Of a DNA stretch of 64,000 nucleotides, positions 2,025 to 53,713 are shown one piece after another. The notes below the pieces were generated by a model, which was not told the origin of the DNA, did not search any database, and worked only from the letters and a program-made list of their open reading frames with translations. Position 1 is the stretch's first letter, and the number at the start of each line of letters is the position of its first letter. The position numbers were made by a program, and so were the translations under genes. The stretch comes from Akkermansia muciniphila (lineage in GTDB: Bacteria > Verrucomicrobiota > Verrucomicrobiia > Limisphaerales > UBA9464): positions 1,285-65,284 of the forward strand of contig CAMCYJ010000008.1 in the NCBI GenBank assembly GCA_945883815.1, written 5' to 3'.

Positions 2025-2180
2025 GGGACAGGCTCAATCAGGGGCGGATCAGGGACGGGCTCGTATTTTGCGCCTCTCGGCCGGCGGTAGGCTCATGGTG
2101 CCGGGGGCCGGGGCGTTTTGTTCCTCGGTGGGCAGAAGTCTGTAAGCCTCGGGAATCTGCGGCTTGATTGGGGACAGGCT
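2025..2180 (+). repeat. GGGACAGGCT motif cluster A (3 copies)
   Basis: Copies at 2025-2034, 2052-2061 (GGGACGGGCT, 1 mismatch) and 2171-2180. The first two sit in a 27-bp local duplication (GGATCAGGGACAGGCTC). Confidence 0.85.
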
Positions 2181-2326
2181 CTTGTTTGGATCGAACGCTC
2201 GTAACTACAGGAATGCTCAGGCTTTCGAGATTCATGGCTTCAACTCGGCTTCGACAGACGTTTTGGTTTCCGATGAATTGGATCCGTCGCATCCCGATTC
2301 AAATGCAGGTTCAAGATAGAAAACTT

Positions 2327-2360
2327 TTGACAGATTGGGTCCTGCCGCAGATTAACTAAT
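2327..2360 (+). promoter_or_regulatory. candidate sigma-70-like promoter for the riboswitch leader
   Basis: Perfect TTGACA at 2327-2332, followed 17-19 nt later by the AT-rich stretch GATTAACTAAT (2350-2360). It lies about 25-50 nt upstream of riboswitch helix P1. The -10 hexamer is ambiguous. Confidence 0.3.
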
Positions 2361-2382
2361 CCCGCTGCAGGGAACTGCGGCG

Positions 2383-2500
2383 CTCATCCAGAGTGGCAGA
2401 GGGAACGGCCCGATGAAGCCACGGCAACCGGTGGAGCTGACGTGCTCGACGGCCAGGTGCCAAATCCGGTCGGAACTAAAAAAGTTCCGGCGAAGATGAG
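2383..2500 (+). promoter_or_regulatory. SAM-I (S-box) riboswitch aptamer
   Basis: P1 halves are CTCATC (2383-2388) and GATGAG (2495-2500). The conserved core CAGAGTGGCAGAGGGAACGGCCCGATGAAGCCACGGCAACC and GGTGCCAAATCC matches the remembered S-box consensus (e.g. B. subtilis yitJ leader) almost base for base. Confidence 0.9.
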
Positions 2501-2521
2501 AAGCGTCGGCTCCCTTGGAGA

Positions 2522-2555
2522 CCCCTTCTCGCTTTGCGGAAGGGGATTTTTGTTT
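2522..2555 (+). terminator. intrinsic terminator (expression platform of the SAM-I riboswitch)
   Basis: The 7-bp stem CCCCTTC (2522-2528) / GAAGGGG (2539-2545) has a 10-nt loop and is followed by ATTTTTGTTT. It starts 22 nt after the aptamer. Confidence 0.8.
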
Positions 2556-2635
2556 CCCACCGCATCGGTTTTTCGGATGCGCGTCGTCAGGTCGTCGCGG
2601 CAGTTATTTTTCTTATGAGCCAGAGCAACGGATTC

Positions 2636-50374: not shown

Positions 50375-51403
50375 TCAGATCGCGGCGGCCGCCAGTTCAC
50401 TGAGATCGAGGGCGACCGAGAGTAATCCGGAGCGGAAGGCCTCTTGGATAGCCCGATCCATGAGTTCTTTTGGGGTCTTTTTCCCCAAGAGCCCGATCGT
50501 CTCGGACATCCGTTGTTGCAGTTTCCGCAGCGGTCGGATGAACGGGGCCGCGGAAAGGCAATGGCGGAGTTGGGTATGGGCTTGAATGATCCCTCGGATG
50601 TGGTTGGCATTCCCCGGCAACGACGGCTCTGTTTTGGCCGGGGCATCGGTTTTCCGGAGCACCGCCGTGACATTGCCGCCATCAGCTGAGGTGAACGTGC
50701 GGACGACTTCGAAACCTGCTTGGCGTCCGAGTGCGCCCAAGGTGGCGTCATTGAAGTTGTAGAGGTGAGCCCGATGGAATCGATGGGACGGGGCCTGACA
50801 CACCGCCTCCACGTTGGGGACTTCAATCCACAGCAACCCGCCGGTGCGTAGCCATCCCCGGATCAGGTGCATCGCTTGCAGAGGACTGTCCAAATGTTCC
50901 ATCACGTGGAAGAGCGTCACGGCCGAGAGGGAATCTGGTTCGATGGAGGCCTCCTGCCAACTGCCCGAGGTCACCGGAACCTCCAGACGCTCCCGGGCGA
51001 ACCGTGCATAGCCGGCGTTGGGCTCGATGCCGCGGGCGTCGAATCCCAACTGGCGGAGCATATACACGACCTCTCCGCCACCGGCCCCCAGGTCGAGCAC
51101 CGCTTCTCCACGAGGCAAATTGTCCCGAAGCTGCCGGCATCGCTCCACGGCGACGCGCGCTGCTCGCAAAGTGTGTCGGGGCTTGGGTTCGAGGGTTCCT
51201 TTGTAGTCCTGGCGGTATTCTTCCCGGTAGTAGGCCGCCAAGGCCTCCGCGCTAGGTCTTGGATCATTCCAGACCAGTCCACACTGTGGACACAGGACCA
51301 CCTGAAGGGGAGAGGCGTCCCGGTCTTGGGTCGCTACGATTTCTACGTTTTGGCTTCCACACAGTTCACAAGGAACTGTCGCGATCGTCTGAACTGGGAC
51401 CAT
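50375..51403 (-). CDS. class I SAM-dependent methyltransferase with N-terminal zinc ribbon
   Basis: The start is at ATG 51403 (MVPVQTIATVPCELCGS...CPQCG). Motif I is VLDLGAGGGEVV. The longer ORF to 51658 would run through the intergenic repeat copies. Confidence 0.75.
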   Translation of the reverse strand: MVPVQTIATVPCELCGSQNVEIVATQDRDASPLQVVLCPQCGLVWNDPRPSAEALAAYYREEYRQDYKGTLEPKPRHTLRAARVAVERCRQLRDNLPRGEAVLDLGAGGGEVVYMLRQLGFDARGIEPNAGYARFARERLEVPVTSGSWQEASIEPDSLSAVTLFHVMEHLDSPLQAMHLIRGWLRTGGLLWIEVPNVEAVCQAPSHRFHRAHLYNFNDATLGALGRQAGFEVVRTFTSADGGNVTAVLRKTDAPAKTEPSLPGNANHIRGIIQAHTQLRHCLSAAPFIRPLRKLQQRMSETIGLLGKKTPKELMDRAIQEAFRSGLLSVALDLSELAAAAI

Positions 51404-51516
51404 TGTGAAATAGCCTGACCCGAACCCGCCGACTGTCAAAGGGTTGCTGGTTCGCAATCGGGGGCGGTGTGCCTCATGGGAATCGTAGCCCACAGGTCGC
51501 TTGAGGTGACCCTTTG

Positions 51517-51582
51517 GGGACAGGCTCTTTAGAGACCTTTTTGGGGGACGTTTGTGAGGCATGATCCTCTTGGGGACAGGCT
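51517..51582 (+). repeat. GGGACAGGCT motif cluster F (2 copies)
   Basis: Copies at 51517-51526 and 51573-51582, each preceded by CTTTGG/CTCTTGG. The partial TTGGGGGACG lies at 51541. Confidence 0.85.
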
Positions 51583-51626
51583 TGTCGGTTTGAGTTGGCG
51601 GAAATTCTTCGACAGGCTGGAGGTCG

Positions 51627-52055
51627 ATGGAGCCTTTCCGATATCGCCACCGGGTCACCTATGCCGACTGCACCGTCGGGAACCACGTTTACTACAGCCG
51701 CTACCTCGACCTCCTCGAAGCGGCGCGCGGTGAATGGTTCCGCTCGATGGGCAAATCCTTCGATGAGTGGCACCACGGCCAGGGGTTGATCTTCCCTGTT
51801 CTCGAGGTTCAGCTGAAATACCGGAGTCCCGCCCGCTACGACGAGGTGCTGACAATCGAAGTGGGGGTACTCGAGGCGCGGGGCGTGCGGTTGAACGTGG
51901 GCTACCGAGTCGTGGGTTCTGAGGGGCAGGTGCGGGTTGAAGGGTACACCCACCATGTGTGCACCAATCTCGAGGACAAACCGCGTCGCCTGCCCGCGGA
52001 ATTGCTCTCAGCACTCGGAGTCCCGACGGGAGGCCCTCGCAACCCGGAGCCGTGA
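51627..52055 (+). CDS. acyl-CoA thioesterase, YbgC/4HBT hotdog family
   Basis: 142 aa. The N-terminal pattern YRHRVTYADCTVGNHVYYSRYLDLLEAARGEWF is typical of 4HBT thioesterases. Confidence 0.8.
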   Translation: MEPFRYRHRVTYADCTVGNHVYYSRYLDLLEAARGEWFRSMGKSFDEWHHGQGLIFPVLEVQLKYRSPARYDEVLTIEVGVLEARGVRLNVGYRVVGSEGQVRVEGYTHHVCTNLEDKPRRLPAELLSALGVPTGGPRNPEP

Positions 52056-52077
52056 ACCGATCGTCGGGCTGCCCGAC

Positions 52078-53583
52078 TCAGTTGACCGACTTCGCCAAGA
52101 CTTCCTCGAACTCCACCAACTCCTGGATTTGGATCAGGAACCAGCGGTCGATCTTGGTGAGGTGGAACACCTCTTCGATGCTGAATCCCGCGCGGAAGGC
52201 GTGGCGGATGAAGAAAATGCGCTCGGCGTTCGGGGCGCTGAGCTTCCGGGAGATGAGGTCCTTGGGCAGGATTTCCCGGTCGCCGTAGCTGTGGGTGCCC
52301 ACACGCCAGGGCTTGCCGTCGCCGCCAATGCCGCTGCGACCGATTTCCAACGAACGGAGGCACTTCTGGAGGGATTCCTTGAAGGTGCGTCCGATGGCCA
52401 TGGCCTCGCCGACGCTCTTCATCTGCGTGGTCAGCGTCGGATCAGCCTGAGGGAACTTCTCGAAGGCGAAGCGCGGGATCTTGGTCACCACGTAGTCGAT
52501 GGTCGGCTCGAAGCTGGCCGGGGTCTCGCGAGTGATGTCGTTGCGGATCTCGTCGAGCAAGTAGCCCACCGCCAGCTTGGCGGCGATCTTCGCGATGGGG
52601 AACCCGGTGGCCTTGGACGCCAGGGCCGAGCTGCGGCTGACCCGGGGGTTCATCTCGATGATGACGATGCGCCCGGTGTCGGGATGCACGCCGAACTGGA
52701 TGTTCGAGCCGCCCGTCTCAACACCCACGGCGCGGATCACCGCGAAGCTCTGGTCGCGGAGCATTTGGTACTCCTTGTCGGTGAGCGTCTGGATCGGGGC
52801 CACTGTGATGGAGTCACCGGTGTGCACACCCATCGGGTCGAAGTTCTCGATGGAGCAGATGATGACGCAGTTGTCGGCGCGATCGCGCATGACCTCCATC
52901 TCGTACTCCTTCCAGCCGAGGAGCGACTCTTCCACCAGGATTTCGCTCACCGGGGACAGGTCGAGTCCGCGCTTGGCGATTTCTTCGAATTCTTCGCGGT
53001 TGTAGCCAATGCCGCCGCCGGTGCCGCCCAACGTATAAGCCGGCCGGATGATTAGCGGATATCGGCCGATGCGGACGGCGATGGCGCGAGCCTCGTCCAG
53101 CGTGTGGGCCGTGCCGCTGATGGGCACGTCCAGACCGATGGAGAGCATCAGGTCTTTGAAAATCTGCCGGTCTTCGCCCTTCTCGATGGCCTCGGCCTTG
53201 GCGCCGATCATCTCCACATCGAGCCGTTCCAGCGTACCCGAGCGGTGCAGCTTCATGGCCGTGTTCAGCGCTGTCTGGCCGCCGAGTGTCGGCAATAGGA
53301 CCAGCTTGCCGGTGGCGCCCAGGCGTTTCATTTCGGCCTGCTCGCGCACGATGATCTTCTCCACCGCCTCCGGGGTGACCGGCTCGATGTAGGTCCGATC
53401 CGCGAACTCCGGATCGGTCATGATGGTGGCCGGGTTGGAGTTCACCAGGATCACACGGTAACCCTCTTCCCGTAGGGCTTTGCAGGCCTGGGTTCCGGAA
53501 TAATCGAATTCACAGGCCTGTCCGATGATGATCGGACCCGCGCCAATGATGAGGACAGAGTGGATGTCGGTGCGCTTCGGCAT
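52078..53583 (-). CDS. carB: carbamoyl-phosphate synthase large subunit, N-terminal half only (carboxyphosphate domain)
   Basis: The start is at ATG 53583 ([59 protein letters not shown]). The protein is 501 aa. It ends in ...[24 protein letters not shown], inside the region homologous to the E. coli CarB oligomerisation domain. Confidence 0.85.
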
Positions 53584-53713
53584 GGTCAGAAAAGCTGGCG
53601 GATGAAACACGGTCCTTGCCCGGCGGGCGACGGAAATCTCAGGGCCTTTCCGGACAGGCTCCCGCTCGACTGAACTTGGGCCTACGCCGGCCCGTGTGCA
53701 GGTTGTGTGCAGC

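Follow-up and report, generated by a model that had tools for sequence, protein, structure and literature searches.

A dispersed 10-nt motif in a freshwater verrucomicrobium as the probable terminal-repeat core of a TIRYT-type transposase-like gene

Genes that resemble the REP-associated tyrosine transposases (RAYTs) and carry terminal inverted repeats (TIRs) in place of repetitive extragenic palindromes (REPs) have been named TIRYTs or TIRtrons (Di Nocera et al. 2013, BMC Genomics 14:522, PMC3733652). The published TIRs share the core GGGGWSAS; their families are 'moderately abundant', with members found singly, as dimers, or in clusters, and the TIRs that flank the genes are 'long' (PMC3733652). 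TIRYTs have largely been equated with TnpA_Y1 subclass 2.1, which corresponds to RAYT Group 1 of Bertels (Quentin et al. 2018, BMC Genomics 19:475, PMC6006769). This is the largest of the RAYT groups, and subclass 2.1 is the second-largest TnpA_Y1 subclass, present in ~15% of the strains sampled (Quentin et al., PMC6006769). Subclasses 2.1 and 2.3 were searched both automatically and by hand without a REP-like sequence being found (PMC6006769), and the 16-mers flanking Group 1 genes have ~12 occurrences, slightly above those beside housekeeping genes (Bertels et al. 2017, GBE 9:2110, PMC5581495). Subclass 2.3, which is nested in 2.1 and was described from Chromatiales and Alteromonadales, is characterized by the motifs NHYH, WE, and YVDLNP, a HuH-to-Tyr spacing of ~110 aa, a 55-aa insertion between beta3 and alphaC, and a length of ~325 aa (PMC6006769). 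Here, a 64-kb stretch of DNA from an uncultured freshwater Verrucomicrobiota bacterium (contig CAMCYJ010000008.1; hereafter the window) was analyzed for its dispersed 10-mer GGGACAGGCT. This motif is likely the TIR core of a TIRYT-type gene that adjoins the window, and hence the cognate repeat family of a RAYT-like Y1/HUH protein of TnpA_Y1 class 2 with the 2.3/2.1 architecture.

Exact copies of GGGACAGGCT numbered 25 on the two strands of the window (14 plus, 11 minus), whereas dinucleotide-preserving shuffles averaged 0.20 copies with at most 3, which bears out the original prediction of a strong over-representation with at least 24 perfect copies. For each k from 8 to 12 the motif was the most frequent word of the window, and its density was ~0.4 copies per kb, or about one per 2.6 kb. 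The sign of the GC skew was constant along the window. Allowing one mismatch added just seven sites, including those at 2052, 42227, and 53651, where ~6 were expected by chance; the motif is therefore an unusually sharp word. It is not self-complementary. The position preceding the motif was A in 72% and G in 28% of the 25 copies and never a pyrimidine, as in the extended consensus proposed earlier, while the trailing '(C/T)T' of that consensus was found to be weak, with a C in 52% of the copies at the position after the motif and no conservation in the further flanks. A literature full-text search for the 10-mer returned eukaryotic primers alone.

A gene map was drawn from the length of open reading frames (ORFs) and the GC content of third codon positions (GC3), and was compared, where possible, with the gene calls of near-identical contigs. 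Intergenic DNA on this map amounted to ~7.3 kb (11% of the window) and carried 16 of the 25 copies, or 18 when the copies at 51517 and 51573, both within an over-extended ORF start, are included. The motif was ~20-fold denser in intergenic than in coding DNA, in agreement with the intergenic concentration originally noted. Of the coding copies, a 1549-aa RCC1-repeat protein accounted for five, and an FtsJ-like methyltransferase gene and the 5' end of a BNR/sialidase-like gene for one each. The exact copies first listed in seven intergenic regions were all correctly placed, the one-mismatch site given as 53652 lies at 53651, and further exact copies were found beyond these regions at 11906(+), 14763(-), 14880(-), 15448(-), 16131(-), 16460(+), and 29833(-). 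Local duplications contained 11 of the 25 copies: two each at 6192/6213, 6317/6341, 12029/12060, and 40521/40556, and three at 42166-42202. Joint duplication of motif and flank, as initially described, holds for the periods of 18, 21, 24, 27, 31, and 35, but not for the 56-nt pair 51517/51573, which shares little except the motif. Likewise, a single orientation per region was confirmed for the clusters listed, but the copy at 11906(+) faces those at 12029-12113(-) across the BNR gene start.

The window is preceded by an apurinic/apyrimidinic (AP) endonuclease gene, and to the left of that gene is a transposase-like gene whose start is ~1.1 kb before window position 1. The leftmost 19 kb of the window are also represented in four near-identical contigs (L001-L004), which were assembled from other metagenome samples. 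On L001, which is identical to the window in all compared spacers at an offset of 1731, the gene occupies positions 1-654(-) and is cut by the contig end. The full-length orthologue, of 338 aa, was found at L123:1574-2590(-); L123 and L124 are the orthologous loci of two related species, whose gcvP proteins are 90-91% identical to that of the window. The closer match of the window's gcvP product, with 95% identity, is a protein assigned by NCBI to a Verrucomicrobiota MAG (metagenome-assembled genome). The protein matched the Pfam family Y1_Tnp ('Transposase IS200 like') with E-values of 3e-11 (L001) and 2e-12 (L123), and it scored 59-61 bits against the NCBIfam model REP_Tyr_transpos ('REP-associated tyrosine transposase'), under the cut-off of 80. 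Forty homologues showed no variation in the HUH motif (NHFH) or in the Tyr of AAYIDLNPVRAGLV. In an AlphaFold model with a mean pLDDT (predicted local distance difference test) of 81.6, the REP-associated tyrosine transposase of E. coli (4er8_A) was the best fold match in the PDB, and the transposases of IS608, ISDra2, and IS200 came next; a PDB sequence search with the family profile gave only marginal IS200 matches (E ~0.07). The 338-aa protein includes NHFH, LWEERF, and YIDLNP, with 110 aa from H62 to Y172 and an insertion of ~50 aa after beta3, at about residues 70-120. Its C-terminal 60 residues form a small domain of no recognised kind in the model. No copy of the gene was found inside the 64-kb window by tblastn with this protein.

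In L123 the gene is flanked by inverted copies of the motif, at 1308+/1343+ downstream and at 2642- upstream. L001 (708-) and L124 (159-) share the upstream copy, which is the only one seen in the organism itself, where the downstream repeat is not visible because the contig ends inside the gene. At this upstream position an outward-facing inverted pair of the motif was observed (L001 708-752, L123 2642-2686, and L124 159-202), and its 25-nt spacer (GTTTTGYTTTGACGG) shows partial conservation. Speculatively, were TTGACG a -35 element, the right-hand copy of the pair would fill the spacer of a possible AP-endonuclease promoter.

The association between gene and motif was analyzed from both sides. 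Starting from the motif, one genome per species was scanned for two 10-mers 5-35 nt apart, which yielded at least 118 stretches, many of them in metagenome-assembled genomes (MAGs) of Verrucomicrobiota; in a database of this size, chance and unrelated tandem repeats would account for several tens of such stretches, and the list alone is not evidence. The motif-found loci were then searched by tblastn with the 338-aa protein. The gene was found directly beside a motif pair in the Verrucomicrobia loci L081 (64% identity) and L090 (57%), and one MAG each of Bacillota (L021) and Nitratifractor (L111) had a distant homologue of ~220 aa next to the motif, such that the motif-first recovery comprised four other MAGs from three phyla. 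The flanking copies were at 757+ and 2135-/2161- in L090, and at 5228+ (after the stop codon) and 5954-/5974- (before the start) in L111. Among the matches listed, the 10-mer occurred in MAGs of Verrucomicrobiota, Planctomycetota, Myxococcota, Campylobacterota, and Bacillota. In a blastn comparison of the window with motif-found loci of other genomes, a tRNA was the sole orthologous match.

Starting from the gene, metagenome contigs were scanned for homologues of the protein, where 80 loci were kept and 73 were evaluable. Of these 73 loci, 33 had the core GGG[AT]CA[GT] on the sense strand in the 200 nt before the start, compared to a background of ~4%, and four had it in antisense orientation. 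In at least 17 loci, the exact 10-mer variant upstream of the gene was repeated, inverted, downstream of it. The variants included GGGACAGGCT, GGGACAGGCA, GGGACAGGTC, GGGTCAGGTG, GGGTCAGACC, GGGACATTCC, and others, and differed between loci. At L144, the locus's variant was present nine times, in arrays on either side of the gene. Bracketed genes were also found on plasmids of cultured bacteria, namely Rhodospirillum rubrum (NC_007641), with AAAAGGGGTCAGACCCC, and Pseudomonas aeruginosa (NZ_CP116719), with AAAGGGGACAGATTTATTTTCC and additional solo copies. Since the 10-mer differs from locus to locus yet matches on the two sides of the gene at these loci, the gene and the repeat covary.

Several of the loci recovered in these searches had features of their own. 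In the Myxococcaceae MAG JBGATB01 (L066, L075, L082, and L096), arrays of a 29-nt unit (GGAAATGGGGACAGGCTACTTTTCSG) form two inverted blocks 0-170 nt apart at several loci, which looks like a MITE-like (miniature inverted-repeat transposable element) or REPIN-like derivative with the same 10-mer. In the Clostridia MAG OZ006978 (GC 28%; L006, L040, L049, and L068), a 36-nt unit (GTCACTTTAGGGGACAGGCTCTTTTCTGCCAATTTT) that includes the same 10-mer is dispersed in a 1.7-Mb chromosome. The homologue of a cultured Luteolibacter (P0148, L207) was rejected as a reference, as its locus looks rearranged and shows no dispersal within 21 kb. This locus (Luteolibacter sp. CP161812, 6381325-6403043) encodes a 572-aa homologue with an internal duplication of ~636 nt, has GGGACAGGCA antisense upstream, and lies in surroundings rich in RHS, AbiEii, and integrase genes. 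Within the window, the 17 kb closest to the TIRYT-like gene (1-17000) hold 16 of the 25 copies and seven of the 11 clusters, for which local action or chance are both possible; a clear gradient of copy density toward the gene was not seen at L081, L090, or L125. Additionally, L001-L004, which come from four independent assemblies, all end on the left at or near the gene, in the region ~1.1-1.7 kb before window position 1. The break falls inside the gene in L001, L002, and L003, at differing positions, which suggests a repeated or strain-variable region.

With the TIRYTs and TIRtrons, the locus shares a RAYT-like Y1 gene bracketed by inverted repeats, here with a core equal or close to GGGGWSAS, and more copies elsewhere in the genome. 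The published TIRYT dau_2153 shares 59% identity with the L021 protein and was matched by the verrucomicrobial protein in BLASTP with an E-value of 3e-18 and 27% identity. The G-preceded form of the motif, GGGGACAG, fits GGGGWSAS exactly and accounts for seven of the 25 copies; AGGGACAG makes up the remaining 18, and homologues of other phyla carry GGGGACAG or GGGGTCAG. The motif had originally been labeled as unassigned, which no longer holds given its exact or near match to the GGGGWSAS core of TIRYT TIRs (PMC3733652, PMC6006769) and a gene of this type adjoining the window with the motif on both sides. In contrast to the published TIRtrons, only a core of 10-11 nt is dispersed here, between unrelated flanks, and the protein is a long, insertion-bearing relative. 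It looks like subclass 2.3 as published in NH[YF]H, WE, Y[IV]DLNP, the 110-aa spacing, the ~50-aa insertion, and its length of 338 aa. Unlike subclasses 2.1 and 2.3 and Group 1 as surveyed, it has a clear cognate repeat, in a host from the Verrucomicrobiota; a repeat this short may well have escaped the 16-mer and hairpin screens. The C-terminal helix-turn-helix (HTH) domain of subclass 2.1.2 (RAYT Group 1), which resembles Bac_DnaA_C, HTH_23, and HTH_28, was not detected here.

The REP/REPIN-RAYT systems of E. coli and Pseudomonas are similar in that a Y1 gene, here with a predicted RAYT-like fold, is flanked by its own short extragenic repeat with many dispersed copies. However, the unit of REPs and REPINs is a palindromic hairpin of 20-40 nt with a GTAG-type foot, whereas the motif here is non-palindromic and has no GTAG foot. 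REPs form inverted doublets, are biased toward 3' ends and convergent spacers, and are species-specific, while the clusters here are direct tandem arrays, the copies favor 5' or promoter spacers, and the core is common to several phyla. The IS200/IS605 elements have the same HUH/Y1 catalytic fold, but subterminal hairpins, a tnpB partner, and multi-copy identical elements are absent here, and the protein bears the 'Y---NP' signature of class 2.

The arrays appeared to be dynamic within the species. At 6192/6213, the window, L001, and L002 have two of the 21-bp units and L003 and L004 a single one; at 12029/12060, the window has two of the 31-bp units and L004 has three. This polymorphism between strains strengthens the earlier claim, which proved right, that duplication took place independently at each site. 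Between species, the motif recurs at orthologous as well as new sites, with 18 copies in L123, 12 in L124, and seven in the locus L125. Indels and substitutions between species abound in the spacers that precede gcvP, thrC, and the BNR gene, yet the 10-mer is kept at corresponding positions in L123 and L124. In the variable middle of the gcvP spacer, ~10% of the columns were invariant, compared to 18 of the 20 columns of two aligned motif copies. Four-fold degenerate sites differ by 52-56% between the window and L123 or L124; as neutral sites are saturated while copies are retained, selection or continual restoration is needed, and the perfect state of the old copies points to selection or ongoing enzymatic restoration.

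A crude gene caller based on GC3 was applied to 34 verrucomicrobial loci, 326 kb in total, to survey the placement of the motif relative to genes. The motif was found in 13 divergent spacers (out of a total spacer length of 8.9 kb), 13 co-directional spacers (17.6 kb), and one convergent spacer (6.6 kb). Convergent spacers, which account for 20% of the spacer length by this crude gene caller, contributed only one of the 27 motif-bearing spacers, and motif density tracked the number of gene starts per spacer. In co-directional spacers the clusters were sense in seven cases, antisense in four, and mixed in two, and no preference was seen in divergent spacers; across the 34 loci, orientation relative to the downstream gene showed no significant bias.

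This preference for promoter-containing spacers (13 divergent, 13 co-directional, and one convergent), together with orthologous retention despite saturated neutral divergence and the near absence of imperfect copies, would also suit a host DNA-binding protein that has no relation to the transposase-like gene and for which the copies serve as operator or upstream sites, with the gene-adjacent copies marking just another regulated promoter. Such a regulator is improbable, because it would not track one gene family across phyla. At no fewer than 17 independent loci in several phyla, the variant changes with the Y1 gene and always forms an inverted pair around it. In addition, the spacings of 18-56 nt show no helical phasing. 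Under the TIR-core reading, the transposase-like protein itself may be the DNA-binding protein that had been postulated for arrays of binding sites.

At thrC, the copies are at least 200 nt 5' of the SAM (S-adenosylmethionine) riboswitch and also 5' of the sole block conserved among three species, which contains TTGACA, and at gcvP they are 70-350 nt 5' of a conserved TTGCCT-N16-TAGCTT block. Both blocks are putative promoters. Candidate core promoters at 1950-2008, 2316-2360, and 6415-6460, in which TTGACT, TTGACA, or TTGCCT is followed by a TAGCTT-like hexamer 16-17 nt on, are conserved in three species; a sigma-70 promoter scan of 1900-12700 found none. If the conserved blocks are promoters, the arrays lie outside the leaders, which argues against a role at the RNA level. 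The original prediction had included such a role, in which the motif would act in 5' leaders as a GGA site for a CsrA-like protein; other RNA-binding proteins may be considered as well. The motif does contain GGA and is on the sense strand upstream of a gene in several spacers, but this explanation is very unlikely given the mixed orientations, with antisense copies in several spacers, the placement upstream of the inferred promoter blocks at thrC and gcvP, and the absence of the motif from the Rfam matches of the window, which at gathering thresholds were a SAM riboswitch and a tRNA only. Two other readings were dropped. A promoter -35 reading (GGGACA, like TTGACA) had no conservation 17 nt downstream, and for the NusB/boxA-like (GCTCTTT) and sigma-54 readings, the flanks vary too much.

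The DNA uptake sequences (DUS) of Neisseria and the uptake signal sequences (USS) of Pasteurellaceae are also short, sharp, and strongly over-represented words, with a length and density similar to the 10-11 nt and ~1 per 2.6 kb seen here. Even so, a DNA-uptake word, another of the initial hypotheses, or a further species-signature word (DUS/USS-like or Chi/KOPS-like) that serves competence or chromosome processing is very unlikely: the motif is not confined to one lineage, is concentrated in spacers, has no strand polarity (14 plus and 11 minus copies), and is tied to a transposase-like gene, with the same 10-mer accompanying the same gene family in unrelated phyla and covarying with it. Finally, an origin by chance, from base composition, or from a handful of duplications in tandem is refuted by the recurrence in related species (at orthologous and new sites) and in unrelated genomes and by the covariation with the gene, and although the 11 of 25 copies in local duplications inflate the count, one count per cluster still leaves more than 15 independent sites against 0.2 expected.

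Several points weigh against a TIRYT-type origin of the motif. The gene lies outside the window, and the contigs of the organism itself are cut inside it. No HTH or DnaA_C-like C-terminal domain was found with Pfam at E <= 1 among the 40 homologues. The A that precedes 72% of the copies places them one position off GGGGWSAS, and 40 of the 73 gene-first loci have no core motif in the 200 nt upstream. To our knowledge, no TIRYT has been experimentally shown to bind or cut anything, and no known Y1 transposition pathway explains a dispersed unit of 10-11 nt with unrelated flanks. Copies, nearly all of them perfect, persist at orthologous positions despite the 52-56% divergence of four-fold degenerate sites, and this pattern of retention fits selected binding sites better than decaying mobile DNA.

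Under the TIR-core reading, the dispersed copies would be solo or arrayed derivatives of the gene ends, i.e. a REP-like non-autonomous family recognised in trans; a small non-autonomous repeat family had been among the earlier hypotheses, and the evidence supports it. As a best guess, the protein would bind the 10-11-nt core directly, without a hairpin, because the core is not self-complementary and the flanks are unrelated in this organism. HUH/Y1 enzymes nick and rejoin DNA, and the protein probably does so at the 10-mer. The arrays may grow and shrink by unequal exchange or replication slippage between neighboring copies, perhaps stimulated by nicking. The spread of a 10-nt word to new sites could be served by very short transposition products, mutation plus selection, or local copying, and the chances that the protein itself mobilizes the copies are about even. 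Copies would then persist through continued action of the protein (restoration) or through use and selection by the host. A rather doubtful extension is that the TIRYT-like protein and the 10-mer form a domesticated, host-beneficial system instead of a selfish element, in which arrays 5' of core promoters would be held by purifying selection and vary in number in populations, and the protein would read or remodel them.

The individual sites are collected in Table 1. In the 1549-aa ORF (12648-17297), three of the five G-Q-A of the WGxNxxGQ RCC1 repeats are encoded as GGA-CAG-GCT, i.e. by the motif (14763, 14880, and 16131), against ~0.016 predicted from codon usage. L123 retains all three and L124 two of them; the alternatives are selection on the motif within the gene and recent copying of the repeats. 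At 6108-6413 (-), public metagenome annotations give a gene of 84-89 aa that is made of motif arrays, varies in length with the array polymorphism, and has no Pfam match on record; this gene is probably spurious.

Table 1. Motif copies and neighboring features of the window, by window position.
Position	Strand	Feature	Context and conservation
2025..2061	+	exact copy 2025 and 1-mismatch copy 2052 (GGGACGGGCT), 27 nt apart	divergent spacer between iron-sulfur (FeS) assembly gene (-) and thrC-like gene (+); orthologous copy in L123 and L124
2171..2180	+	single copy	~200 nt 5' of SAM riboswitch 2381-2502 and 5' of conserved TTGACA block; kept in L123 and L124, flanks diverged
2381..2502	+	SAM-I riboswitch (Rfam RF00162, 76 bits)	5' of PALP/thrC-like gene 2615-3880
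2522..2545		terminator-like hairpin	after SAM-I riboswitch
6097..6106	+	single copy, 43 nt from aminotransferase start	antisense to aminotransferase gene; invariant in three species
6192..6222	+	two copies, 21-bp tandem unit	unit number strain-polymorphic
6300..6350	+	two exact copies, 24-bp unit, and degenerate partial copies GGGACAAAGG, GGGACAGA	~70-180 nt 5' of promoter-like block of gcvP
9641..9677		12-nt tandem repeat	adjoins tRNA-Val
9684..9758	-	tRNA-Val (GAC)	624-nt spacer after gcvP
11906..11915	+	antisense copy in first codons of BNR/sialidase-like gene, encodes S-L-S-L	same placement in L123 (15322) and L124 (12553)
12029..12069	-	two copies, 31-bp tandem unit, sense	54 nt 5' of BNR gene start; 3 units in L004
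12113..12122	-	single copy	5' of BNR gene; kept in L124 and L123
14763..14889	-	in-frame coding copies 14763 and 14880 (G-Q-A)	neighboring RCC1 repeats of 1549-aa ORF; kept in L123 and L124
15448..15457	-	coding copy in a different frame (G-D-R-L)	1549-aa ORF
16131..16140	-	in-frame coding copy (G-Q-A)	RCC1 repeat of 1549-aa ORF
16460..16469	+	antisense coding copy	1549-aa ORF
29833..29842	-	lone antisense copy	within FtsJ-like methyltransferase gene
40521..40565	+	two copies 35 nt apart, diverged duplication	between minus-strand SDF symporter and Gate-domain genes, antisense to both
40725..40734	+	single copy	same spacer as 40521..40565 (SDF symporter/Gate-domain)
42159..42236	-	three perfect 18-bp units (AGGGACAGGCTTCATCTA) and degenerate copy 42227 (GGGACAGACT)	sense, 87 nt 5' of Gate-domain gene
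51517..51582	+	two copies 56 nt apart	44 nt 5' of thioesterase gene
59222..59276		tandem repeat, 28-nt unit x2	unrelated to motif
63930..63997		tandem repeat, 12-nt unit x5.6	unrelated to motif

The motif belongs to a known kind of system, the TIRYTs or TIRtrons, which has been described but almost unstudied. Several features are not in the published description, including a non-palindromic dispersed unit of 10-11 nt, a REP-like density in a verrucomicrobium, a placement 5' of promoters, and tandem arrays that vary within a species while copies are retained across species. The finding provides a clear cognate sequence for a protein of a group that both large surveys listed without an associated repeat, where only the 2013 paper had noted GGGGWSAS inverted repeats, and it supplies a concrete 10-nt candidate substrate for biochemistry (motif-bearing form AGGGACAGGCTC). 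It also explains the spurious small ORFs annotated across arrays and probably the contig breaks beside the gene, and it raises the question of whether the copies are mobile DNA or selected sites. If the domestication view is true, the arrays would constitute a variable-number promoter-upstream element driven by a Y1 nuclease, and the 10-mer would be the first assigned substrate, with the first assigned role, for proteins of RAYT Group 1 and subclass 2.3.

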